From: Escherichia phage vB_EcoM_SD350
Direction: 5' to 3' (one strand)
Length of the DNA stretch: 52,757 nt
Sequence record: OR911937.1
In this document: positions 4,168 to 48,762 of the stretch, piece by piece
Position numbering within the stretch: the first letter of the stretch is position 1
Layout of the letters: each line of letters opens with the position of its first letter
Notes under the pieces: model-generated
Databases searched by the model: none
The model's input: only the letters and a program-made list of their open reading frames with translations
What the model was told of the DNA's origin: nothing
Made by a program: the position numbers and the translations under genes

Positions 4168-4288
4168 ATTTCTAAAAATATAATTTCAATCTGAATTATA
4201 GACGCTTTGTACTATAACGGCCGAAGTAGTTCACACGGTAATTGTACCAATCATAATAGTTACCAGAGTAATCATTTCAATTGAAATA

Positions 4289-6232: not shown

Positions 6233-6921
6233 GCCCAGTATACAATACCTCAATCACACTGTCAGCAACCGTAGGGGACGTCAACAAGACCGTTACTGTG
6301 GGTTCAACTAACCCGAACCTGTCAGGCGAAGACCTGCTGCGCCTGGCCAAACGTGCTCTTGAAGATAACGAAGTGACTGGTACTGAAGGCGTCAGCATCG
6401 AAATTAACGTCGAAGGATGTCCACACAGCATCAGTATTGCGACCTCTGACAATGAAACTGAAAAGTTCAACGATGAGCTGGAATATCGTACTGGTAAGAT
6501 GTTCAGCAGTGCGTTAAACTGGTACTTGTGCAAGGCCTCGGGTTATACTGGTGCTCCTATGTCAGACCGTATGTTAGCTGATATGTCAGCTCGCGAAATT
6601 GCTAAAGGCTGGGCACATGTACAGATGCTGCAGGAGCATATCTGCAAGCTGGAAAGCTGCAATAAAGACGCGTCTGAGCTTATTACTGCCTATAAGCGAC
6701 AGATTAACGACCTGCAGCAACTGATGGGCAAACGTGCTGAAGAGTATGAGGCTGAGATTCGTAGCCTTAACGGTACAGCTGTTGCTAACAACCGTGCTTT
6801 CAGCGAAGAGCGTAAAGCGCTTATTACCCAGCGTGACGCTGAAAAACGTCGTGCAGACGACCTGGCAGATCGTCTTAACTTTATCCGTAAGCATATGGAT
6901 GCTATGGAAGGGGTAATCTGA
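6229..6921 (+). CDS. hypothetical protein (coiled-coil C-terminal half)
   Basis: ATG at 6229 with AAGGAG 8 nt upstream, overlapping the upstream stop (ATGA). Confidence 0.5.
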   Translation: MSPVYNTSITLSATVGDVNKTVTVGSTNPNLSGEDLLRLAKRALEDNEVTGTEGVSIEINVEGCPHSISIATSDNETEKFNDELEYRTGKMFSSALNWYLCKASGYTGAPMSDRMLADMSAREIAKGWAHVQMLQEHICKLESCNKDASELITAYKRQINDLQQLMGKRAEEYEAEIRSLNGTAVANNRAFSEERKALITQRDAEKRRADDLADRLNFIRKHMDAMEGVI

Positions 6922-7682: not shown

Positions 7683-9131
7683 ATGAATCTTGACTTTCAC
7701 CTGCATGACAGACAAGGTGCCGCTCTGCAGTCTCAGGCAACTGAGATTCTGTACGGTGGCGCCGCTGGTGGTGGTAAGTCTCACCTTATGCGTGTAATGT
7801 CAATTATCATGTGCTGCATGATACCTGACTTGCAGATTTACCTTTTCCGCCGAAACTATAACGACCTTACGGCTAACCACATGGTTGGTCCCACAAGTTA
7901 TCCTGCCTTGCTGGACGGTATGTGCAAAGCTGGCAAGTGCAAGATTAACTACTCGAGCAACACGATTAAATTCTGGAACGGTGCGAACATCAAGCTCTGC
8001 CACCTCCAGTACGAAAAAGATATTTATACATACCAGGGTGCGGAGATTCACGTTCTGCTGATGGATGAGCTTACTCACTTCACAGAAACGATGTACCGCT
8101 TCTTGCGTAACCGTGTCCGACTCGGTGCTCTCAAAGTCCCTGAGAACTTTTTCCGGCCACTGCCACTCATCTTTTGTGGGTCAAACCCCGGTGGTGTTGG
8201 TCACAACTGGGTTAAGCGCACTTTCGTAACTGCTGCTCCTCCGATGAAAATCGTTAAGCAGGAAAAACGCGAAGGCGGTATGGCGCGTCAGTACATTCCG
8301 GCTAAGATGACTGATAACCCTACGCTGATGGAAAACGACCCTGACTACGGTGACCGTCTTGAAGGTCTTGGTGACCCGGCTCTTGTTGCTGCGATGAAAG
8401 AGGGTGACTGGGATATTGTTGCAGGTGGTGCGCTTGACGACGTATGGTCAACCAAGTGTATTCTGCCGCGTATGCGTATTCCGAAAGGCTGGACTATCGA
8501 ACGTTCTCTTGACTGGGGTTCTACTCACCCGTTCTCTGTTGGTATCTGGGCTATTGCAAATGGTGCCTCGCTTACAGACGACGAAGGCAATGAGTACTTT
8601 ATTCCGCGTGGTTCAATTATACGTATAGCTGAATGGTATGGGTGCTCTGAAAAAGAAGCTAACAGGGGTATTAAATTATCTGCTGCCGAAGTCGCTCAAG
8701 GTATTATTCGTCTACAGGAAAATTTGCAGGCTGGTGGCTGGATTCAAAGCAACGTTAATCCTGGTCCGGCAGATAGTCAGATTTATGCGTGCAAGGAAAA
8801 AGACGTCGAGACTATCGCGAAGAAAATGGAAGACGAAGGCGTAACCTGGGTCAAGGCCGACAAGTCGCAAGGTTCGAGAATAAATGGCTTAGAGCTATTC
8901 CGTCAGCTTCTGAAAAATGTTAAGATGGACGAAACGGAAAAGCCGGGCATTTATTTCATGGAAAACTGTCCAGCAGCCATAAACACGTTGCCGGTTCTGC
9001 CGCGTGACAAGAACAACACGGAAGATGTCGACACGAACTCTGAGGACCACGTATACGATGATTGTCGTTACATGGTGTTGCGTGGCATCAACCGTTATAC
9101 TACCAAGCTCAAAATAAATATGGGACGGTAA
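7683..9131 (+). CDS. terminase large subunit
   Basis: 482 aa; Walker A GGAAGGGKSH near the N-terminus and acidic nuclease-like C-terminal half; followed by portal. Confidence 0.7.
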   Translation: MNLDFHLHDRQGAALQSQATEILYGGAAGGGKSHLMRVMSIIMCCMIPDLQIYLFRRNYNDLTANHMVGPTSYPALLDGMCKAGKCKINYSSNTIKFWNGANIKLCHLQYEKDIYTYQGAEIHVLLMDELTHFTETMYRFLRNRVRLGALKVPENFFRPLPLIFCGSNPGGVGHNWVKRTFVTAAPPMKIVKQEKREGGMARQYIPAKMTDNPTLMENDPDYGDRLEGLGDPALVAAMKEGDWDIVAGGALDDVWSTKCILPRMRIPKGWTIERSLDWGSTHPFSVGIWAIANGASLTDDEGNEYFIPRGSIIRIAEWYGCSEKEANRGIKLSAAEVAQGIIRLQENLQAGGWIQSNVNPGPADSQIYACKEKDVETIAKKMEDEGVTWVKADKSQGSRINGLELFRQLLKNVKMDETEKPGIYFMENCPAAINTLPVLPRDKNNTEDVDTNSEDHVYDDCRYMVLRGINRYTTKLKINMGR

Positions 9132-12671: not shown

Positions 12672-13172
12672 ATGGCATACACACTTGTTGTGGAAGACGG
12701 TTCAATTGTTCCGGGTGCTAACTCGTATGTTAGCGCAGCAGAAGTTGATGAATTTATCACTAACGAAGGTATTCTCATTCAACCAGGAACTGACCCGTAC
12801 TACCAGGCTGCCAAAGCAGCTATCCGACTTGATAACCAGTTTAACTGGCTAGGTCGTAAGGTCAGCAAAACACAGAGCATGGCTTGGCCCCGTACTGGTC
12901 TCGGTGCATGCAATGTTGACATCGCGGAGTCTGTAATTCCGCGAGAAGTTAAGCTGGCACAGCTTTATATGATGGCCAGTGTATTGAGCTACGACGGTGA
13001 AGAAGGTGTGCGTAGCGACCAGGCTTTGCGCCGTAAGAAAGTTGGTAACCTGGAGATTGAATACTTCGACTCCAAATCAGGCGTTACCGGTGCAACTGAC
13101 CTTTGGACGTCAGACGTCAAGGTCATGCTCAAGCACCTTGTGGGTGCATCACTGAGAACGCGGAGAGTATAA
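12672..13172 (+). CDS. head-tail connector/adaptor protein candidate
   Basis: 166-aa ORF immediately after the capsid gene; positional. Confidence 0.45.
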   Translation: MAYTLVVEDGSIVPGANSYVSAAEVDEFITNEGILIQPGTDPYYQAAKAAIRLDNQFNWLGRKVSKTQSMAWPRTGLGACNVDIAESVIPREVKLAQLYMMASVLSYDGEEGVRSDQALRRKKVGNLEIEYFDSKSGVTGATDLWTSDVKVMLKHLVGASLRTRRV

Positions 13173-14488: not shown

Positions 14489-15111
14489 TGGCAACTGGAG
14501 TAGACCCGGAACTGCAAGCGCAGCTGGATAAGCTAACAACTGCTGTCCAGCTCATTCATGACTTCGGTATGTCAGACAACCCAAACATCCCTAACCCGGA
14601 AGGCGGTGTCATACGCACACTCGAAGGCATTAACGCTGCAATCAACGAAGCTATACCAAACTTTGAAAACGCTAACGAAGCTGCTATCCAGGCGCGTGCT
14701 GCTCGTGACGCGGCTATTGCAGCCAAAGAAGCTGCAGAAACGGCAGCTGAACAGGCCACAGTAGCTTCGACGTCAGCAATCTATGAGTACGGCAACGTTG
14801 CAAGTGCAGCTACAGTGACTATACCAGCTGCATCTAAAACAATTGTCAGCCTTACACTTAACCAGCCAAACACCGTAATTAATATCGGTGGTGTATCTGA
14901 CCCGTCTACTGTTGCGCGTCAGATTACTATTGCTATTAAGCAAGGCACTGGTTCTAACAAAGTGACTGCTTGGGATCCAAGAATAAAATGGGCCAACAAC
15001 AGGAAGCCCGTTCTGTCATTCCTTGTGGGTTACACAGATGTTGTTACGTTGCTGACCTTTGACTCAGGCGCAACTTGGATGGGTTTCTTTAACGGTGGAT
15101 GGATTAAATAA
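14488..15111 (+). CDS. hypothetical virion protein
   Basis: 207 aa, Ala-rich, start overlaps the previous stop. Confidence 0.45.
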   Translation: MATGVDPELQAQLDKLTTAVQLIHDFGMSDNPNIPNPEGGVIRTLEGINAAINEAIPNFENANEAAIQARAARDAAIAAKEAAETAAEQATVASTSAIYEYGNVASAATVTIPAASKTIVSLTLNQPNTVINIGGVSDPSTVARQITIAIKQGTGSNKVTAWDPRIKWANNRKPVLSFLVGYTDVVTLLTFDSGATWMGFFNGGWIK

Positions 15112-33485: not shown

Positions 33486-33687
33486 TAAGCCTGAAGTTGT
33501 TTATGTTGACAGGGTAGTCAAGGTTTATCCGCCTGGTGCATACCTGGTTAAATGCCATAAGCCTGAATTAACAGGTAACACCTGGAAGGCAATAGGTCAG
33601 TTAGCTATTGAACGTGGAACAGCTCTTGATGATTGTGCAGACAAGATGGACAGCATAATTAACTGGAGTAACAAAGGGGCCGAGTGA
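33412..33687 (+). CDS. outer-membrane lipoprotein spanin (Rz1-like)
   Basis: Starts inside the Rz-like gene in another frame; signal peptide with lipobox LLLLPFLNSC. Confidence 0.5.
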   Translation: MTKQQKMIRALIPLLLLPFLNSCADKPEVVYVDRVVKVYPPGAYLVKCHKPELTGNTWKAIGQLAIERGTALDDCADKMDSIINWSNKGAE

Positions 33688-33701
33688 TGGCCCCTTTATT
33701 T
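33676..33701. terminator. bidirectional intrinsic terminator between convergent blocks
   Basis: GGGGCC-gagtgat-GGCCCC followed by TTTATTT; separates the rightward lysis genes from the leftward replication block. Confidence 0.65.
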
Positions 33702-37459: not shown

Positions 37460-37467
37460 AGTATAAC

Positions 37468-37481
37468 GGGGCCGAAGCCCC
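37468..37481 (-). other. intercistronic GC hairpin with UUCG tetraloop on the transcript
   Basis: GGGGC-cgaa-GCCCC on the plus strand (UUCG loop on the minus-strand RNA); identical core at 43912-43925. Confidence 0.45.
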
Positions 37482-37489
37482 GCTCCATC

Positions 37490-38374
37490 TTATACGGCCA
37501 TTTGGAGTTTGATGTTTGGCATTGGTTTGTACTTCTCAACCATTGGCGTAACATCGGCAGGAGTGAAGTCAAACACTGACACGTCATAAATTGCATTAAT
37601 GTCAGGACGACCTTCAAAGTTAGTGTCCAGTGTAGTATCAGAATTGCTTACGATACGTTGCAGGAAAATCTTTGCCGCATCGATATGATTCTGATAGATG
37701 TGATAATCACCCAGCGTAACAGTCATATCACCTACCCCAGTACCCAGCTCAGCAGCAATGGTAATCTGCAACATCTGATGCAGCAGAATATCGTGAGGCA
37801 GGCCAAGAATAACATCCGCGCTACGCATGTGGAACATCAGCTCTAACTCATTACGGTTATTAATGAACAGCTGAAAGCCATGGTAACAAGGCGGAAGGGC
37901 CATGGCGTCCATCTCTTGTGGGTTCCATGCCGTAATGTATGCCCGGCGGTCAGTAGGCTTAACCTTCAGCGTTTCAATAACATCTTTAAGCTGGTTAGTA
38001 AGAACACCATTCTTATAGAATGGCTTAATCCATTGCACGCCGTACACAGGACCTAAGTCACGGTTGTCTGGCGTACCCCAACGTTTGTTTGCGTCCTGCA
38101 GGTTACCTTCCCACCAGTTGCAGCCAAAGCCTTTTAGCGTGTCGACGTTTGAAATACCGTTGATAAAGCAGTAAAGCTCAGCAGCAACAGCTTTGATGTT
38201 AACAGGCTTAAACACCGGCACCATCAGTTTGTTGTCGTTGAAAGCCAGCTTAAATGCTGTACCAAAACAACGGCGGGTACCAACACCTGTACGGTCTACA
38301 ACATCCTCACCTTTACGCAGGATAAAAGAAATGATGTCGCTGTAAAGAGAATCGACAGTGCTGTATGTTTTCAT
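37490..38374 (-). CDS. thymidylate-synthase-family pyrimidine C5-modifying enzyme, predicted dCMP-specific
   Basis: DRTGVGT, LGPVYGVQW, DRRAYITAWN, ALPPC (catalytic Cys), GDYHIY align to ThyA motifs; LGLPHD has Asp where ThyA has Asn177 (LGLPFN); Tyr follows the catalytic Cys instead of His. Confidence 0.75.
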   Translation of the reverse strand: MKTYSTVDSLYSDIISFILRKGEDVVDRTGVGTRRCFGTAFKLAFNDNKLMVPVFKPVNIKAVAAELYCFINGISNVDTLKGFGCNWWEGNLQDANKRWGTPDNRDLGPVYGVQWIKPFYKNGVLTNQLKDVIETLKVKPTDRRAYITAWNPQEMDAMALPPCYHGFQLFINNRNELELMFHMRSADVILGLPHDILLHQMLQITIAAELGTGVGDMTVTLGDYHIYQNHIDAAKIFLQRIVSNSDTTLDTNFEGRPDINAIYDVSVFDFTPADVTPMVEKYKPMPNIKLQMAV

Positions 38375-38967
38375 TAAAACAGTTCCTTTTGAGCCGGGTT
38401 AACGTGTGCGTCGATGATGGACTGGATGTCAGGTGCTTTCCACCCTTCAGGCTTAACAATATCCTGACCAGACTTATGCTTGCTGTTGCTTGCATCAGGC
38501 TTAGCGCGTTCTTTCGCCATGTTAGCAGCCTGTACCGCATCCCATGCTGCGTCAAGTGGCCAGTTATTGTTTGCACACCAGGTAATCAGGTGGATAATTA
38601 ACTGGGCCAGACGGTCGCAATGAGTGTCTTCAGTATCCTTAACATATACAATAAGGCCATCAGCATCGAAACGGTCCATAAATCCGCATGGCGTAGTTAA
38701 CAGAATCGGATACTCAAATTCGTTGGTGAACCATGCAGTCTGGTCATACAAGTATAACGTACCTGCGGCAATGTAAATTAAATCTACAATACCATCTAAG
38801 AAGCCAGCTTTGTCGCCGTCCTTCTTAGCTTGTTTAATTTCTTCCATCTCCTCAATAAGACGGTCGTAACGAAGCTTGAACTCAGGTTTACCGCCTTGAC
38901 TAACAGGCTTGAGGTCAAACTTCTCATGAAAAGCGGTAACGCCTGCAGCAATTTTACTGAATCGCAT
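38374..38967 (-). CDS. MazG-like all-alpha NTP pyrophosphohydrolase
   Basis: 197 aa; acidic helix RLIEEMEEIKQA...DGIVDLIYIA typical of MazG-like pyrophosphatases; adjoins the TS-family gene. Confidence 0.5.
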   Translation of the reverse strand: MRFSKIAAGVTAFHEKFDLKPVSQGGKPEFKLRYDRLIEEMEEIKQAKKDGDKAGFLDGIVDLIYIAAGTLYLYDQTAWFTNEFEYPILLTTPCGFMDRFDADGLIVYVKDTEDTHCDRLAQLIIHLITWCANNNWPLDAAWDAVQAANMAKERAKPDASNSKHKSGQDIVKPEGWKAPDIQSIIDAHVNPAQKELF

Positions 38968-39352
38968 TTCGTAACTCCTTACAAACAGTTTCGATAAACT
39001 TACGCTTAATTTCTGTAGACCAGATAATATGACGAGCCTGTTCTAAAGTGTCCCAACGTTCTTTACCCACAGGAAAGGGAACAATGAAAAGGCCGGTACG
39101 GGATATGCGCTTGATAAACGGGAATTTACAGCGCATGGTTGTTTCAAACTTGATAAAGTTTGTTTGCACATCGCGTGTAAACTTGACCTTATCAAATTCA
39201 TGTTCAAGAGTTTGAGCAATGTTGCATACTTCCTGGAAAGAAGATGCAGGCAAGTAATCTTCGCGGCCGACGGTGTTCACGTAGTCGATTTGGCCTTCTA
39301 GTCGAAGTATCCAAATCCTGTAATAAGCTTCAGCAACACGTTGTAGATTCAT
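38954..39352 (-). CDS. hypothetical protein, coupled to the MazG-like gene
   Basis: 132-aa ORF whose stop overlaps the MazG-like start by 14 nt; first gene after the 39377-39407 promoter. Confidence 0.5.
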   Translation of the reverse strand: MNLQRVAEAYYRIWILRLEGQIDYVNTVGREDYLPASSFQEVCNIAQTLEHEFDKVKFTRDVQTNFIKFETTMRCKFPFIKRISRTGLFIVPFPVGKERWDTLEQARHIIWSTEIKRKFIETVCKELRNAIQ

Positions 39353-39376
39353 TGTATCTCTCCTCTAAAAGATAAC

Positions 39377-39407
39377 TTATTATACCACATCACTCTCTAG
39401 TGGTAAA
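39377..39407 (-). promoter_or_regulatory. leftward promoter with CCAC/GTGG inverted repeat and extended -10
   Basis: Minus strand reads TTTACCAC-N-GTGGTATAAT (TTTACC-N17-TATAAT); related copies at 42505-42533, 45745-45770, 48865-48897. Confidence 0.45.
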
Positions 39408-39432
39408 GCACTTTTTACGCTTCTGGTAAAAA

Positions 39433-39462
39433 TAAAAAGGACCAGCGTTAACTGGTCCTTTT
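39433..39462. terminator. bidirectional intrinsic terminator
   Basis: AAAAGGACCAG-cgttaa-CTGGTCCTTTT: perfect 7-bp GC-rich stem flanked by A and T runs. Confidence 0.65.
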
Positions 39463-40029
39463 GGCAGGGTGGCGTAAGGAGATACAAGGCATCGTAACTA
39501 TGCAACCAGGCAGCGCATATGAGATTGGCCAAAAGACTTACCATTTTAATCCCCGCGACGAGACGAAAGGAGGTGTTATCGAGTAGCCAATCACATATGC
39601 GTTACTTGCTGTGTGCTCTCACCGCGGAAAGTATAGAGCGTTGCACTTATCACACCGATGGAGTGGCAAAAGCACACAGCAAGTACAACCTTAGTTGTGG
39701 TGTCTTAGCACCTGAGTTATTGTGGATAACCTGCACCCGACGGGTGTCAAAAAAGATACGCCAAAACACCACAACTAAAATTGTGACCGCCGTCTACACC
39801 AGGCGCCTGGGGTCAAGGTAGCGAGCCAATACCCTTTTCAGCGTCGGAGGAATCGAACCTCACACATCACGGCTTTTACCAAATCTCGGTCAGCGAGCAG
39901 AATTGAACTGCATTCACTGGACACCCTCACTGTTTCAACACACCAGGCTTAATTGATTGTTGATAAGAAGAGAGATGTAAGGATGTCCATTGAATGCACC
40001 TCCGTAGAGGTGCGTTCAGATCAGCGCTA
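39463..40029. other. noncoding island inside the replication operon; candidate structured RNA or origin
   Basis: ~570 bp without a credible ORF; perfect 15-bp inverted repeat (39602-39616 / 39670-39684, 53-nt spacer); 12-bp palindrome CCAGGCGCCTGG (39800-39811); two T-arm-like stem-loops (~39846-39862, ~39896-39912). Confidence 0.4.
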
Positions 40030-40497
40030 TTATTCAGCAACTTCTTCGTTGTCGCCTTCGATCGCGCCAGCCAGTTTAGCAGCTTCAGCTTTAGCAGCTT
40101 CTGCTTTCTGGCGAGCTTTTTCAGCTTTCTCTTCAGCTTTGCGAATCTGCTCAGCAGCTTTCGCTTCGGCTTTTTCAGCTTTGATGCGAGCACGCTCTTC
40201 AGCTTTACGCTGTTTTTCAGCGGCTTTAGCAGCATCGCGTTCTGCTTTAGCGGTATCAACACGCTTAGCCAGAACTTTACCAGTGGCTTTACGCCAGTAG
40301 GTCAGCTGGGAAGAAACAGTACCACGGGACATTTCGGTAGTGGCAACAACTTCGTCCATAACGTCAGAGCTGGACTTGCCTTCTTCATGGGCTTTATCAG
40401 CCAGGTCCCATACATAACGTGCACCAGTACCAGCTGCCGGATACAGTACGCCGTTAACTTCTTCTTTACCAGTTACAAAAGTCAGTTTCTCGCTCAT
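40030..40497 (-). CDS. protein with Lys/Ala/Glu-rich low-complexity C-terminal tail
   Basis: Start set at MSEKL (GAGGA upstream); C-terminal ~70 aa is AKAERDAAKAAEKQRKAEERARIKAEKAEAKAAEQIRKAEEKAEKARQKAEAAKAEAAK. Confidence 0.5.
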   Translation of the reverse strand: MSEKLTFVTGKEEVNGVLYPAAGTGARYVWDLADKAHEEGKSSSDVMDEVVATTEMSRGTVSSQLTYWRKATGKVLAKRVDTAKAERDAAKAAEKQRKAEERARIKAEKAEAKAAEQIRKAEEKAEKARQKAEAAKAEAAKLAGAIEGDNEEVAE

Positions 40498-40603
40498 AAT
40501 TTTTTCCTCGTCTACAGGGCTTAATGTTTGTTCGTTACGTGAGTTAATATACGTCATTTAAAAGAGTGTGTAAACACCTTTTTTAAACTTTTTTCATTAG
40601 TGT

Positions 40604-40825
40604 CTAGAAAGGCACATCATAGTCAAAAAGTTTACATCCGGAAGACAGGACTGCCGGCGGTGGTGTTTTGCCTCCGGATAACAGGCAACCTCCTGCCTGA
40701 AAACTACGGCAGTTCGCACAGCTCATATCCTGCAAGTATATAATAAGCTGTCGGCGAACATGCCGGGGTAAAGCTTTAGCCTGGGTTGCTACCCGTTCAA
40801 ATAGTTCTCTGTCATCGAGCGCCAT
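40604..40825 (-). CDS. small Cys-containing hypothetical protein
   Basis: 73-aa ORF with CANC...C...C; overlaps the helicase 3' end by 14 nt. Confidence 0.4.
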   Translation of the reverse strand: MALDDRELFERVATQAKALPRHVRRQLIIYLQDMSCANCRSFQAGGCLLSGGKTPPPAVLSSGCKLFDYDVPF

Positions 40826-42482
40826 AACCGTTTCCCCAGTCGTAGTTCATGATTTGTGGGTAGGGTCGTTTAATCCATACCTTGATGCGCTTAGGAATAG
40901 CCAGCTCACCCTTACGGCGAATAAACTCATCGCATGTTTCAGGCGGTTCTGTTCCTGCAGCATTGCGCCACCAGGCATCTGCCATTTGCTTAGCATTGCC
41001 ATGGGCCTCTATATTTACCCATGTTGTATACACTTCCAGGTTTGAGTAGTACACAACCTTTATACTGTCTGGCCGTCCCTGCTTCTGGAATAAAGAATAG
41101 TTTACCAGCGTAACATCTTTATCCACAACACGAAGCTGACCGTTAGTCATTACCTCTTCTTCTGATGAAGTGAAGGCAATGGCAGGTCCGTTAACTGTAA
41201 ACTCAAATTCATGTCCGCACATCGGATATACACCATTCTCGTCTGGCGTACTTCCTTTAGCCGGATGCTTACACGTACGTGCGGCATAGCCACTTACCTG
41301 GTGACAGATAGGGCACTCTTTACCGCCAGGTGTTTTCTCTGACCGTTTCTTTTTCTTCTTACCAAGACGTGGCGGAACAGCCGGGTCGTCAATAGGCCCA
41401 AGGTCAATGGTGTTAGATGTGAAGTCCATAACAAGACAGTCATGCTTACCAGGCGCTGTACGTAATCCTCGACCGAGTATCTGCACCCACAAAGCAACAG
41501 ACGTGGACGGGCGCAAGATGCCGAGCATATCAATCTCAGGATAGTCAAATCCTGTCGTCAATACGTTTACGTTTACACAGACTCGTGCTCGTCCGCTTGT
41601 AAACTCTTCCAGTGTGGCTTCACGTTCTTTCTTCGTAAGACCGCCATGCACAACTACAGTCTGCCACCCTCGCAGATTAAATTCGTCTGCTATGTTGTGG
41701 GCGTGCTCAACACTTGTGGCAAATACAAGAACGTGGTTCCTGTCTTTACCGTAGTGCATCATCTCACGAATAGCCGCGACTGTTATACTATGCTGGTTGG
41801 CTACCTTCTCAAGCTCTGACGGGATGTAGTCACCCATCCTTTCGCCAACATTACTAGTGTCAATCTTGGTTAACACTTTCTTGTTGACCAGGCGTGACAG
41901 GAAGCCTTCATTTACCAGTCGGGTAAATGCGTCAGGTGTTGTAAGGTCATAACAGATGTCGGTAAATATACCACAGTCCAGCAAGTGACCACCTGCCAGG
42001 CGATACGGAGTTGCCGTAAGTCCTGTTACCTTTACCTTAGGATTAAGCTCTTTGAAGTGAGCAATAACCTTACGGTATGTTGTTTCAGACTTCTCAGGAA
42101 CAAGATGGGCTTCGTCAATGAATATAAGATTGAACTTGCCAGCTTCTTCCAGGTTCTTAATAATTGACTGTACCGACGCTACAACGATACGACCTGAAAA
42201 GTCTTTGTGTCCTGCTCCTGAAGAGTAGATAGATACTGGGGCTTGTGGCCAGTGGCGTACAATCGCTTTGGCGTCTTGTTCTACCAGCTCCTTGACGTGT
42301 GTCAATATAAGAATGCGCTGACGGGGATAGCTGGTAAGAATATCCTTCATCAGCATACCAAGCACAGGTGATTTACCTGAACCTGTCGGCATGACAATAA
42401 GTGGATTACCACTATAAGAATTGAAGTACGACCACCAGGCTGTGACCGCTTCAGTTTGGTACCAGCGAGCTTCAAAAGCCAT
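40812..42482 (-). CDS. SF2 (DEAH-type) DNA helicase with C-terminal zinc ribbon
   Basis: 556 aa; Walker A MPTGSGKS, Walker B FIDEAH, C-terminal CPICH...CKHP...MCGHE. Confidence 0.7.
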   Translation of the reverse strand: MAFEARWYQTEAVTAWWSYFNSYSGNPLIVMPTGSGKSPVLGMLMKDILTSYPRQRILILTHVKELVEQDAKAIVRHWPQAPVSIYSSGAGHKDFSGRIVVASVQSIIKNLEEAGKFNLIFIDEAHLVPEKSETTYRKVIAHFKELNPKVKVTGLTATPYRLAGGHLLDCGIFTDICYDLTTPDAFTRLVNEGFLSRLVNKKVLTKIDTSNVGERMGDYIPSELEKVANQHSITVAAIREMMHYGKDRNHVLVFATSVEHAHNIADEFNLRGWQTVVVHGGLTKKEREATLEEFTSGRARVCVNVNVLTTGFDYPEIDMLGILRPSTSVALWVQILGRGLRTAPGKHDCLVMDFTSNTIDLGPIDDPAVPPRLGKKKKKRSEKTPGGKECPICHQVSGYAARTCKHPAKGSTPDENGVYPMCGHEFEFTVNGPAIAFTSSEEEVMTNGQLRVVDKDVTLVNYSLFQKQGRPDSIKVVYYSNLEVYTTWVNIEAHGNAKQMADAWWRNAAGTEPPETCDEFIRRKGELAIPKRIKVWIKRPYPQIMNYDWGNGYGAR

Positions 42483-42504
42483 TTATCATCTCCTCATTAA
42501 CTTT

Positions 42505-42533
42505 ATATATTATACCACTTCCTTGTGGTAAAG
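42505..42533 (-). promoter_or_regulatory. leftward promoter candidate (CCAC-N6-GTGGTATAAT on the minus strand)
   Basis: Plus strand ATTATACCACTTCCTTGTGGTAAAG; minus strand reads TTTACCACaaggaaGTGGTATAAT. Confidence 0.45.
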
Positions 42534-42540
42534 TATACTT

Positions 42541-43419
42541 TTATTTTAAGGAAAGTTTAACGGGCTTCTCATCCTGCGGGAAGACATCAGCAGGGCGATA
42601 ATCATCACAAGCTGCTAATTGCTCTTCGAGTGTTTCGAGTTCTTTCTGGTGCTTGTTGCAATACCACACTTTGCCCTGAAGCGGTTTACTGTAATGGCAG
42701 GTTCTGCAGTTCCTGTCTGGCATTGCTCCTTTGTGGCACAGGTGATGGTATTCGCACATCCCTGGTTTGCACTCCCACCAAATAGGCGATTCAGAAATCT
42801 TCGGCATATCCAAACCAGATTCCGCATATACAACAGCCTCCGCTTTACTCAGTTGTATGTCGCTTTCCAGTAAGTCAATCTCGACCACCTCAAAATACAT
42901 CTCGTCGGTGTTCTTATTGATTGCGATGTACACAGCTTGATTCAGCTTAAGCTTCCGCATGTATACCTGCATCTGGGCATAGTGTACCGGCTTACTTGCT
43001 TTAACAGACTTGAGCTTGACTAACTCTTTAAACGACTTATCGCCATGCGTCTTGAATTCAGCAAGTGCCCATACGCCTTTGTATTTAATTACACAGTCAC
43101 AAGACCCAGAGAAGATGCCATTGAATTCGTGTATGCGCCACTGCTTACCAGTCTTGGGATTGACGTCCAGCACTTCGTCACATACGGAACGAAGCCACTT
43201 TACAATTCTGCTTTCTTCAAGGTTACCACGTTCAAACAGACGAAGTTGCTTAGCTGTAAACTTCTCCTTGAACGACCAGTGCAGAACGTGCCAAAGATAG
43301 CGATAGCAGTTGTGTCCTATCTGTGATGCTCCAAGATGCCCGCGTCGTTCTTCTCTTTCGTGGGCTTCAACTATCTTGATGTCAATACGTTTCTGCAGGT
43401 CGTCAAACGGACTTGGCAT
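42541..43419 (-). CDS. PD-(D/E)xK exonuclease, RecB/Cas4-like with Cys cluster
   Basis: EFK and QMQVY nuclease motifs plus C-terminal Cys cluster (CKPGMC, C, C..C); start set at MPSPFDD (GAGGAG upstream), not the track start 43536. Confidence 0.55.
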   Translation of the reverse strand: MPSPFDDLQKRIDIKIVEAHEREERRGHLGASQIGHNCYRYLWHVLHWSFKEKFTAKQLRLFERGNLEESRIVKWLRSVCDEVLDVNPKTGKQWRIHEFNGIFSGSCDCVIKYKGVWALAEFKTHGDKSFKELVKLKSVKASKPVHYAQMQVYMRKLKLNQAVYIAINKNTDEMYFEVVEIDLLESDIQLSKAEAVVYAESGLDMPKISESPIWWECKPGMCEYHHLCHKGAMPDRNCRTCHYSKPLQGKVWYCNKHQKELETLEEQLAACDDYRPADVFPQDEKPVKLSLK

Positions 43420-43888
43420 TGTTAAACTCCTCAACGCTGAATTCATCGTACACAATATTATGAGCCCACAAGTGAGCGACGGCATTTGCCATGCTGTCCT
43501 TCCATTTGGATTGAGAAGCGGTATGTGCCAATGCAACTACACGTACCAGGTTAAGGTTGGCTATCAGCATGTCAGCACAATGTTCGCACGGCGGGTAGGT
43601 TATGTAGATGGTAACCGGGCCTAAAGAAGGAGTGTCTAACTCACTCCTTATGTTAGCTAAGGTGTTTATCTCGCTATGAATAGTTAGAGCGTTCTTAAGG
43701 CTATTAGGCACTATTCTTATAGAGTCTAGCTGCGTAGGTAGACCGTTATATCCAGTGGAAATGATACGCTTGTTCTGGTCCACAAGAACGCTACCGACTT
43801 GACGTTTAGGGTCCTTCGACCAGCTCGCAACTTCACAAGCTATGCGCATAAACCGCCTATCCCACTTGTCCATCTTCTTCTTTTGCAT
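43403..43888 (-). CDS. dCMP deaminase-family zinc deaminase
   Basis: 161 aa; HSE and PCEHC zinc-binding motifs of the cytidine/dCMP deaminase fold. Confidence 0.65.
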   Translation of the reverse strand: MQKKKMDKWDRRFMRIACEVASWSKDPKRQVGSVLVDQNKRIISTGYNGLPTQLDSIRIVPNSLKNALTIHSEINTLANIRSELDTPSLGPVTIYITYPPCEHCADMLIANLNLVRVVALAHTASQSKWKDSMANAVAHLWAHNIVYDEFSVEEFNNAKSV

Positions 43889-43910
43889 GGTAGTCTCCGT
43901 ATACGAAAAT

Positions 43911-43926
43911 AGGGGCCGAAGCCCCT
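43911..43926 (-). other. intercistronic GC hairpin with UUCG tetraloop, second copy
   Basis: AGGGGC-cgaa-GCCCCT; on the transcript followed by AUUUUCG and a GGAGAC ribosome-binding site before the deaminase ATG. Confidence 0.45.
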
Positions 43927-43949
43927 ATTGAATATCTACTCGGCAGGGA

Positions 43950-44495
43950 TTATTCTTCCCAAGGAGCTGCTGCACCGTCGTCAGCACCAGGTGCCGTTGC
44001 AGTAGCACTCGCCTTCGTTGAAGTACCCGCACCTGCACCTACTTTCTTCGTCGTCGATGCAGTTGCTTGAGAATGACCACCTACTGCAGTAGTTGCTTCA
44101 GTTGACGCTTTGTATTCGCGAATATCGTTCTGCGGATCGTATTCACCGGTCTTGTCGATACGAACACCAACTTTACCAGCTACAATACGGTTTTCCAGTA
44201 AGTCGGTAGAAGTCAGCTCAACAATACCCAGCGCACGACACAACGCAGACAGTTTGCGATGACCGATTTCAACAGCTTGCGCATTAGGGTTGGAGTAGGT
44301 AATCATGTCAAATACAACACGGTTAGCGAACTCACCTTCCTGCACTTTCAGACGCAGGGACAGGTAAGAACCAGTGCCTGCTTTAGTCGGCTTCAGCTCA
44401 ACCTCTTCAATCATGAAGTTGTACCAGCCTTTCGGGATCGGGTCAAAAGACTGTTGCGGTTCGACGGTAGAGCTGTTGAAGTTTAATTCAGCCAT
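43950..44495 (-). CDS. hypothetical protein, possible ssDNA-binding partner of the ATPase
   Basis: 181 aa, beta-rich N-terminal domain plus Ala/Thr/Gly-rich acidic tail ending PWEE; family guess (DUF669-like) from memory. Confidence 0.4.
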   Translation of the reverse strand: MAELNFNSSTVEPQQSFDPIPKGWYNFMIEEVELKPTKAGTGSYLSLRLKVQEGEFANRVVFDMITYSNPNAQAVEIGHRKLSALCRALGIVELTSTDLLENRIVAGKVGVRIDKTGEYDPQNDIREYKASTEATTAVGGHSQATASTTKKVGAGAGTSTKASATATAPGADDGAAAPWEE

Positions 44496-44602
44496 TGTTT
44501 GGTATCCTGTTTAAGTTTAGTTTAATTTCGTTTAACGCTTTACCGGCAGCGTTCGGCCGTGATGCTTATTATACGCCACTTTTTATCATGGCGTAAACAC
44601 TT

Positions 44603-45717: not shown

Positions 45718-45777
45718 ATTCTCTCTCCTCATGTGTATAGAGGTATTATACACCACTTACATGGGGTAAGTACACTA

Positions 45778-46224: not shown

Positions 46225-46272
46225 AGTACTCTCCAGGGAGGAAGACTGGCGGGCTTGCACCCGCCTAAGTTA

Positions 46273-47870: not shown

Positions 47871-47938
47871 GGATGATATACCCCGTTATTTGTGTTGCCA
47901 GGTACAAACCGTATACCACACACCCAACAAGTATGGCA

Positions 47939-48280: not shown

Positions 48281-48312
48281 AAGTTAAGGGGCTTGTGCTA
48301 AGCCCCGTTTAA

Positions 48313-48762
48313 TTACTCGGCTTCTTCCGTAGCTGCCGGGGTGAATGTTACAGTCGGAATACCAGGCGAGGTCTTCACAACAGGGTCGACGATAGCCAGT
48401 TGTTCTGGTGTCAGGTTACGGTATGCAGTAACTGACATTTCATACTTGGTTTTAAACAGCTTGGCAACAACAGTCTTCGGTAACTTCTTCATTACGTCAG
48501 GCACAAGCTTCTGGTCTAGTGAGCGGTTAACCTTCTGCTCAACCTTGAGTTTACCAGGTACGCCATGCATGCTGAACTCAACCGTTTGTGTACCTTCTTT
48601 ACCACGATTGATAATCATGTCACGTTCAAGACGTGCTTTAATGGTCCGGCGCAACGTCTCCTGGTCAGCTTTCGCTTGTGCCATCCAGCGGTTCAGATTC
48701 GCCAGCTTGTCGTACAGCTGTTCCGTATCCATCGATTCCAGTTCTTGTGGGTTCAATGCCAT
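48313..48762 (-). CDS. hypothetical protein
   Basis: Start set at MALNP (GAGGAA upstream); promoter-like motif 48865-48897 lies upstream. Confidence 0.45.
   Translation of the reverse strand: MALNPQELESMDTEQLYDKLANLNRWMAQAKADQETLRRTIKARLERDMIINRGKEGTQTVEFSMHGVPGKLKVEQKVNRSLDQKLVPDVMKKLPKTVVAKLFKTKYEMSVTAYRNLTPEQLAIVDPVVKTSPGIPTVTFTPAATEEAE

Follow-up and report, generated by a model that had tools for sequence, protein, structure and literature searches.

Stable stem–loops between the cistrons of polycistronic messages set operon expression ratios, as in Rhodobacter puf and E. coli malEFG. In phage T4, a structure between the Shine–Dalgarno (SD) sequence and the start codon cuts the 22-nt SD–AUG spacing of gene 38 to 5 nt and the 27-nt spacing of gene 25 to 11 nt, and mutations that destabilise either structure reduce translation initiation (PMC3014915). 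Hairpins of the form (X)nCUUCGG(Y)n are described as common in phage intergenic regions, especially those of T4 (Tuerk et al. 1988, as cited in PMC8948821). Here we analyse three GC-rich hairpins, HP1, HP2 and HP3, at gene junctions of the leftward replication operon of Escherichia phage vB_EcoM_SD350 (OR911937.1; the window is the whole stretch of 52,757 nt). We propose that HP2 and HP3 are leaky terminators and that HP1 is a split ribosome-binding site (RBS), all within a set of five hairpins punctuating an operon transcribed by host RNA polymerase (RNAP), and we give this joint reading a probability of roughly 0.6.

Hairpins at the junctions of the replication operon

The window is the genome of a Rosemountvirus phage, and the 9 kb around the hairpins are 97–98.5% identical to Rosemountvirus phages of Salmonella and Escherichia such as LPSEYT and BP63. 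With the BP63 annotation mapped over, the minus-strand operon runs from ~49565 to 33704 and holds ~24 genes in 15.9 kb, 9% of it intergenic. Its products include SSB, a Sak4-like annealing protein, dCMP deaminase, a Cas4-like exonuclease, a helicase, thymidylate synthase, the polymerase clamp (processivity factor), DNA polymerase and a DksA-like protein. In a study of the relative S144 no gene for an RNA polymerase of the phage's own was found, and the authors inferred that the host polymerase transcribes it from promoters of the sigma-70 type (PMC7432712).

The 14-mer GGGGCCGAAGCCCC occurs exactly twice in the window, on the plus strand at 37468–37481 and 43912–43925, as the first-pass annotation had noticed; in 100 dinucleotide-preserving shuffles neither it nor a one-mismatch variant was ever found. 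In the sense of the minus-strand transcript the two copies are GGGGC-UUCG-GCCCC and form the cores of HP1 and HP2 (Table 1). The related third hairpin of that annotation, HP3, is also present, one position away from where it had been placed. All three lie between co-directional minus-strand genes, again as described, and all three still form when the local context is folded. The stems comprise 8 bp in HP1 (6 G–C), 9 bp in HP2 (5 G–C) and 7 bp in HP3 (5 G–C), and the preceding stop codon lies 5–20 nt away: that of thymidylate synthase at 37492–37490, that of SSB at 43952–43950 (20 nt before HP2) and that of gp72 at 48315–48313 (6 nt before HP3). Each structure is thus a GC stem of at least 5 bp with a 3–8-nt loop after a stop codon. 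HP1 and HP2 also fall under the definition of the C(UUCG)G extra-stable tetraloop; HP3, with the loop AGCAC, does not.

Two further hairpins of the same class, absent from the first-pass annotation, stand at the gp68/gp67 junction and directly after gp59. Across the operon, seven of the nine strong sense-strand hairpins fall within the intergenic 9% (binomial P = 1.5e-6), and these seven are the five hairpins of the extra-stable class and two canonical terminators (39462–39435 and 33700–33670). A chance origin of the hairpins was rejected.

To compare relatives we extracted every operon junction from 13 further genomes spanning Rosemountvirus, Loughboroughvirus (ZCSE2, S144, AEV23, SE4), the KE25/fHy-Eco03 clade, the metagenome contig L015 and Erwinia phage SOI901. 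A search for relatives in viral and metagenome collections, with SSB and with an alignment of the helicase, added two new genomes only (L007/L019 and L015). The covariation evidence amounts to about five lineages and was tested by shuffles. Pairing was read from loop-anchored tables, as MAFFT misplaced L015 at HP1 and gapped the gp68 alignment.

The same junctions carry hairpins with differing stem sequences in Rosemountvirus, Loughboroughvirus, the KE25 clade, L015 and SOI901. The conservation in relatives on which the first-pass annotation had made its proposal depend is therefore found, with hairpins kept at equivalent junctions across clades and HP3 in two of them. At HP1, the orthologues read GGGCGGC-UUAG-GUCGCCC in ZCSE2, AGGCGGC-UUCG-GCCGCCU in SE4, GGGGCC-UUCG-GGUCCC in KE25 and the Erwinia phage, and GGGACCU-UCAC-GGGUCCC in L015; 95.8% of the cells in the pairing table are paired, and four of eight pairs show two-sided changes. 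At HP2, the orthologues include CAGGAGC-UUCG-GCUCCUG, GGGUAGGC-UUCG-GCCUGCCC, GGCUUGC-UUCG-GCAGGCC and, in the Erwinia phage, GGGCUGGC-CUAAUAA-GCCGGCCC. Here 97.5% of cells are paired, with two-sided changes in six of ten pairs; none of 500 shuffles matched the observed score, and slid controls were 30–65% paired. In the HP1 and HP2 comparisons the stems contain G·U pairs and the UUCG loop always stands in the transcript sense, which identifies the RNA of the coding strand as the selected object.

The two additional hairpins are likewise conserved with covariation. At 46265–46248 the window and Loughboroughvirus have a GNRA loop, against UUCG or UUAG in the clades of KE25, L015 and the Erwinia phage, a swap that points to selection for stability and not for a recognised sequence. 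The hairpin at 40013–39996 is near-invariant over three clades, has a UUCG loop in most relatives and covaries in L015 (GUCCCU/AGGGGC); its arms resemble an anti-SD and an SD, and it opens a gene-free stretch of ~530 nt. Within Rosemountvirus, where each junction query matched 43–53 records and a few variant sequences were read per junction, the 13 variable intergenic sites at the three junctions fall in loops, tails and spacers, with none in the stems or in the GGAG beside HP1. The stems make up 48 of the 135 intergenic nt, and the chance of no stem variant is ~0.003 by our own arithmetic. On these comparative grounds, HP1–HP3 are functional sense-strand RNA structures under selection.

Identity of the two copies, which the first-pass annotation had taken as the sign of function, does not serve as one. 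The 14-mers are identical only in the Rosemountvirus lineage, and the stems at the two junctions are unlike each other in every other clade, Loughboroughvirus, the KE25 clade and the Erwinia phage included. Because of this, the 14-nt identity between HP1 and HP2 is, across the genomes compared, a lineage-specific convergence and uninformative by itself; the evidence for function in these alignments is covariation and purifying selection on the stems. The exact 14-mer also occurs in at least 120 unrelated viral contigs of IMG/VR and is a generic convergent solution, a 5-bp GC stem under a C(UUCG)G cap. Among the matches listed, its surroundings are T-rich on the 3′ side in the UUCG sense, and an SD and start codon follow within 30 nt in 59 of 118 unrelated viral contexts. 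The opposite layout, with the SD upstream as in a split RBS, is rare, being seen in one of the 118 contexts among those matches. This contig (IMGVR_UViG_3300006071_000024) reads AAGGAG-GGGGCUUCGGCCCC-UAAAACU-AUG and is another candidate split RBS with the same 14-mer.

HP1 and the clamp ribosome-binding site

The first-pass annotation placed a GGAGAC-type RBS just downstream of each hairpin. This is correct for HP2 and HP3, each of which is followed by GGAGAC and an ATG, and fails for HP1. No SD lies between HP1 and the clamp ATG (37459–37457), and the 8 nt before the AUG (GUUAUACU) contain none; the sole SD-like motif of the gene, GGAG, sits on the far side of the hairpin (Table 1). A scan of 48 genes showed that in most an SD-like motif ends 1–10 nt ahead of the start codon; in the clamp gene alone does a stable hairpin stand between the start codon and the one SD present. 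Its start codon is fixed by a conserved N terminus, MSKFNYD or MGKFNYD, in all clades.

The arrangement is conserved as a whole. All five clades retain the order stop–GGAG–hairpin–5–8 A/U-rich nt–AUG, GGAG is invariant across clades while the neighbouring bases vary, and both GGAG and the HP1 stem are invariant in 44 Rosemountvirus records. With the 16-nt hairpin looped out, the effective SD–AUG spacing is ~7 nt in the window and 6–10 nt in the other clades. The locus thus combines a distant SD without an alternative, a bridging hairpin, and a conserved arrangement with compensatory changes in the stem, and by its sequence layout HP1 has the defining architecture of a split RBS. Its position between SD and AUG suggests a role in translation initiation, one that the first-pass annotation did not consider. 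In the mechanism we propose, the hairpin of 16–20 nt would loop out and bring GGAG to ~7 nt from the clamp AUG. That HP1 works as such a split RBS for the clamp gene in at least five Rosemountvirus-like clades, convergent with the T4 gene 38 module, we judge from this analysis to be about an even call.

In the S144 record, the annotated clamp RBS (AGGT, 14984–14987) falls within the hairpin orthologous to HP1.

HP2 and HP3 as candidate terminators, and alternative readings

HP2 and HP3 share a different layout, in which the stop codon is followed by a GC hairpin, a U-rich tail, the SD and the AUG. Counted from the last G–C pair, the HP2 tail reads UAUUUUCG, with 5 U in 8 nt; that of HP3 reads UUAACUUUU and is followed by the SD of gp71 (GGAG, 48278–48275) and its ATG (48268–48266). 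The same count gives 5 U for HP3 and 4 for HP1, against 7 and 5 for the two reference terminators of the operon. Plain U counts and hairpin energies were used as the measure of a terminator; a draft d'Aubenton-Carafa score was dropped after its discriminant, by our own arithmetic, proved negative even for the canonical terminator at 39462. HP2 orthologues have the textbook form of an intrinsic terminator, with an A-tract, a GC stem and UUUUU right after the stem. A consensus terminator scan flagged HP3 in the window and the ZCSE2 orthologues of HP1 and HP3, and in the S144 supplementary table the counterparts of all three hairpins and of the gp68 hairpin are entered as terminators (PMC7432712). 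The T-rich downstream sequence of the 118 unrelated viral contexts of the 14-mer, with the SD and start codon that follow in 59 of them, also favours a terminator reading.

The gene order suggests how such termination would be used. SSB is bracketed as a unit by its own promoter (44597–44568) and HP2. There is no room for a promoter between HP2 and dcd, and the next promoter stands only before the helicase gene, so that dCMP deaminase and the exonuclease must be expressed by read-through; termination would be partial because the genes downstream have no promoter of their own. RNAP would terminate leakily at HP2 and HP3, the hairpin left at the new 3′ end would block 3′ exonucleases, and the yield of the upstream cistron would exceed that of the genes reached only by read-through, which for SSB are dCMP deaminase and the Cas4-like exonuclease. 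From their sequence and position, HP2 and HP3 are most likely leaky intrinsic terminators that would also protect the 3′ ends they create. The first-pass proposal of partial terminators or stabilisers that set expression ratios is accordingly in keeping with HP2 and HP3, given their position, the covariation of HP2, the U-rich tails, the promoter–SSB–hairpin layout and the S144 calls, and falls short for HP1, which lies within an RBS. HP1 is probably no more than a weak terminator in this genome (4/8 U).

Several observations weigh against the joint reading. A simple terminator scan of the window did not flag HP1 or HP2, and the U-tracts are interrupted in this genome, at HP2 as given above and at HP1 (UUAUACUA, 4/8 U). 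HP3 shows no compensatory change, its stem being invariant in its two clades, so that its support is position and conservation only; the hairpin is present in Loughboroughvirus and missing in the KE25 and Erwinia clades, whose gene content is different. HP1 has an energy of −14.6 kcal/mol (evaluated for the isolated stem–loop) and, within an RBS, could inhibit initiation. Several clades pair the 3′ part of the SD in weak basal stem pairs, as does T4 gene 38. Downstream of HP1 come the essential clamp and polymerase genes, and no promoter is evident in between, which means that any termination at HP1 must be minor. A literature search for transcriptomes or terminator studies of Rosemountvirus or Loughboroughvirus found none, nor did the literature searched contain transcript or translation data for this group.

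The energy of HP1 and the pairing of part of its SD would also suit a negative element, which occludes the clamp RBS and gives low translation, or translation only when ribosomes on thymidylate synthase melt the hairpin. In all clades the thymidylate synthase stop codon precedes the stem by 3–11 nt, close enough for a ribosome terminating there to open the 5′ arm. A repressing hairpin, however, normally pairs the SD core or the AUG, and both lie outside the GC stem here; the distance from stem to AUG is kept within 5–8 nt; and in T4 gene 38 a layout of this kind reportedly promotes initiation (PMC3014915). We regard occlusion or coupling as unlikely. A similarly doubtful account, for all the hairpins, is that they are post-transcriptional stabilisers or processing landmarks without termination, acting as barriers to 3′ exonucleases or as 5′ stem–loops after endonucleolytic cleavage, with segmental decay setting the ratios. 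Such a role would fit the weak or interrupted tails of this genome and the UUCG/GNRA loop swaps, which point to thermodynamic stability. The hairpins at 46265 and 40013 are conserved with covariation despite non-U tails (3/8 U), which argues that stability alone is selected at some junctions, and the stability of T4 gene 32 mRNA has been credited to a CUUCGG hairpin at its 5′ end (PMC8948821). A pure exonuclease barrier, however, would not need the U-rich tails of HP2 and HP3, nor would it account for the textbook terminator form of the HP2 orthologues (A-tract, GC stem and U5), and it leaves unexplained why the clamp SD lies upstream of HP1 in every clade. As for processing by RNase III, this enzyme needs a double-stranded site of at least ~20 bp, as a rule interrupted by an internal loop; the stems here are of 5–9 bp and no longer helix forms in context, which makes such processing unlikely, and RNase III sites were rejected.

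Action at the level of DNA, as protein sites, cruciforms, replication signals or mobile copies of REP/MITE type, is suggested by a perfect GC-rich inverted repeat that occurs twice with an identical 14-nt core and recurs in many viral contigs. Yet the flanks beyond 14 nt are unrelated, and the junctions of relatives keep hairpins of different sequence, so that the two copies neither share ancestry nor evolve in concert. The G·U pairs correspond to A·C mismatches on the other strand and to G·T mismatches in DNA, UUCG always stands in the transcript sense, and the T-richness downstream is strand-specific. A REP/MITE-like element in particular was rejected, as only the 14-nt core is common, and positions are fixed in relatives while sequences differ between junctions. 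We hold a DNA-level role to be very improbable. Least credible of all is that the hairpins are promoters, which is how the S144 record labels the orthologous hairpin-plus-tail stretches (regulatory, 'promoter'). The S144 authors' own supplement lists the same coordinates as 'terminator', the features span from the start of the stem to the end of the T tail, and our scan of the window found no −35/−10 match at the three sites; the record label is an error. The features concerned in the S144 record, MT663719, are 4171–4195, 6300–6321, 8610–8634, 12999–13028 and 14975–14996. A conserved promoter ending at HP2 (TTGGGA-18-TATAAT) was likewise rejected, being found before the HP2 orthologue in the Loughboroughvirus clade only. 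In ZCSE2 this good sigma-70 match (14032–14003) stands just before the orthologue, so that transcripts from it would begin with the hairpin; neither the window nor the KE25 clade keeps its −10 box. For HP2 and HP3 we favour leaky termination, and for HP1 the split RBS.

Table 1 Hairpins, initiation signals, terminators and promoters of the leftward operon
Feature	Position	Strand	Remarks
HP1, AGCGGGGC-UUCG-GCCCCGUU	37465..37484 (core 37481-37468)	minus	thymidylate synthase/clamp junction; minimum-free-energy and centroid folds
GGAG, sole SD-like motif of the clamp gene	37483..37486	minus	abuts HP1 on its 5′ side; 23 nt from the AUG
A/U-rich spacer, HP1 stem to clamp ATG	37460..37464	minus	5-8 nt in all clades
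HP2, AAUAGGGGC-UUCG-GCCCCUAUU	43908..43929 (core 43925-43912)	minus	SSB/dCMP deaminase junction; folds in context
HP2 tail, UUCGUAUAC	43899..43907	minus	then dCMP deaminase SD GGAG 43898-43895 and ATG 43888-43886
HP3, GGGGCUU-AGCAC-AAGCCCC	48288..48306	minus	gp72/gp71 junction; terminator-scan match, folds in context
Hairpin of the same class, GGCGGGU-GCAA-GCCCGCC	46248..46265	minus	gp68/gp67 junction; absent from the first-pass annotation
Hairpin of the same class, GCACCUC-UACG-GAGGUGC	39996..40013	minus	directly after gp59; absent from the first-pass annotation
Canonical intrinsic terminator, 12-bp stem then UUUUUAUUUUU	39435..39462	minus	internal reference; fold z = -4.8
Bidirectional terminator, stem GGGGCC/GGCCCC	33670..33700	both	operon end, meets the rightward lysis genes; annotated in BP63, scan, fold
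Sigma-70-type promoter upstream of SSB, TTTACG-18-TATAAT	44568..44597	minus	promoter scan; annotated in BP63
Promoter-type intergenic regions	47871-47938, 45718-45777, 44496-44602, 42483-42540, 40498-40603, 39353-39420	minus	shared pattern

The promoter-type regions of Table 1 have a TGTACA- or TTTAC-like −35 and, in the spacer behind it, a short inverted repeat that extends into the −10 box, for example TACGCCAT-GATAAAAA-GTGGCGTA-TAAT or TACCAC-AAGGAA-GTGGTA-TAAT. These repeats are kept in all clades with differing sequences and may be an operator or a phage-specific promoter feature. Following the gp68 hairpin (46228–46265, minus strand), a pyrimidine run, CUUCCUCCC, conserved in Loughboroughvirus as UCUUCCUCCAAGGAGAG, can pair with the gp67 SD GGAGAG 5 nt downstream and possibly serves as an anti-SD to dampen gp67 translation.

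The gene-free stretch 39463–39995 aligns with the site of tRNA-Pro(UGG) and tRNA-Gln(UUG) in SOI901 and L015. It retains fragments only, such as GAGGUUCGAUUCCUC, with a T-arm-like motif at 39847–39861, and looks like decayed tRNA genes; ARAGORN and Rfam found nothing in this stretch, and its folding is no better than that of shuffles (z = 0.09). A small open reading frame right after the 40013 hairpin (AUGGACAUCC...) was rejected, its AUG not being conserved in L015 or the Erwinia phage. Nearby, gp58 of BP63 (hypothetical, 54 aa; 39380–39544, minus strand) spans the terminator 39462–39435, overlaps the annotated promoter 39407–39379 and is probably not a gene. Rfam gave no relevant match over the whole window at the gathering threshold or over 39300–40100 at an E-value threshold, and PHROGs returned unknown function for all the genes flanking the hairpins, with no help for the logic of expression. 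Two database records that are ~97% identical over the 9-kb query, KY608966 (phage CF2, filed under Tequatrovirus) and PP583539 ('Listeria phage 220426122051'), probably carry errors of taxonomy or host labelling.

Significance and comparison with described systems

For annotation, the hairpins delimit transcription units inside the replication operon of phages that are isolated widely for biocontrol of Salmonella and E. coli. The analysis also corrects two errors in the public S144 record, terminators labelled as promoters and an RBS placed inside the HP1 hairpin. If our reading of HP1 is true, it provides an independent, phylogenetically supported case of an SD-bridging hairpin, so far described mainly for T4 genes 38 and 25, and would be among very few natural split RBSs outside the T-even phages. 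One structural module would then have two uses within the same operon, termination at one junction and translational bridging at another, and the SD-bridging layout would defeat the standard rules of RBS spacing used in gene finders and expression design. The significance is modest, since elements of both types were already described in the 1980s and 1990s and terminators had been called in S144; what is new is the recognition, from its sequence, of HP1 as a convergent member of the T4 gene 38 type.

Set beside the described classes, the hairpins match each in part. HP1 and HP2, in intergenic parts of a phage operon, have the exact (X)nC-UUCG-G(Y)n form of the C(UUCG)G intercistronic hairpins of phages, a form not shared by HP3 with its 5-nt AGCAC loop or, in this genome, by the 46265 hairpin with its GNRA loop; this class is defined by stability, not by a single function. 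With the intrinsic terminators of enterobacteria and their phages they share a GC stem of 5–11 bp, a loop of 4–5 nt, a U-rich tail, a position after a stop codon and, in HP2 orthologues, an upstream A-tract. The U-tracts here, by contrast, are short or interrupted, and termination must be partial. Like the puf and malEFG stabilisers, they place a stable hairpin after a cistron needed in excess within a polycistronic unit. Those systems use segmental mRNA decay, with REP elements in mal, whereas the present hairpins are single-copy, site-specific and terminator-shaped. Searches of the literature for a link between gene 38 and UUCG, or between UUCG and intrinsic terminators, returned nothing useful.

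The closest parallel is the T4 gene 37–38 junction, UAAGGAGA-GGGGC-UUCG-GCCCUUC-UAAAU-AUG, which folds in the same way as HP1. The T4 split RBS runs UAA–GGAG–A–GGGGC-UUCG-GCCC–UUC–UAAAU–AUG with 22 nt from SD to AUG, and the clamp locus stop–GGAG–C–GGGGC-UUCG-GCCCC–G–UUAUACU–AUG with 23 nt. The two sites have in common that SD and AUG are separated by a GC hairpin with a C(UUCG)G cap, the last SD bases lie in weak basal pairs, and the upstream stop codon stands immediately before the SD. The genes and the phage lineages are unrelated, one gene serving tail-fibre assembly in a T-even phage and the other encoding the polymerase clamp of a 52-kb Rosemountvirus, and the resemblance is convergent. 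HP1 relatives, unlike T4 gene 38, carry a U-rich spacer (UUUUAACU, UUUUAUUAU), which suggests that the element may also terminate weakly.

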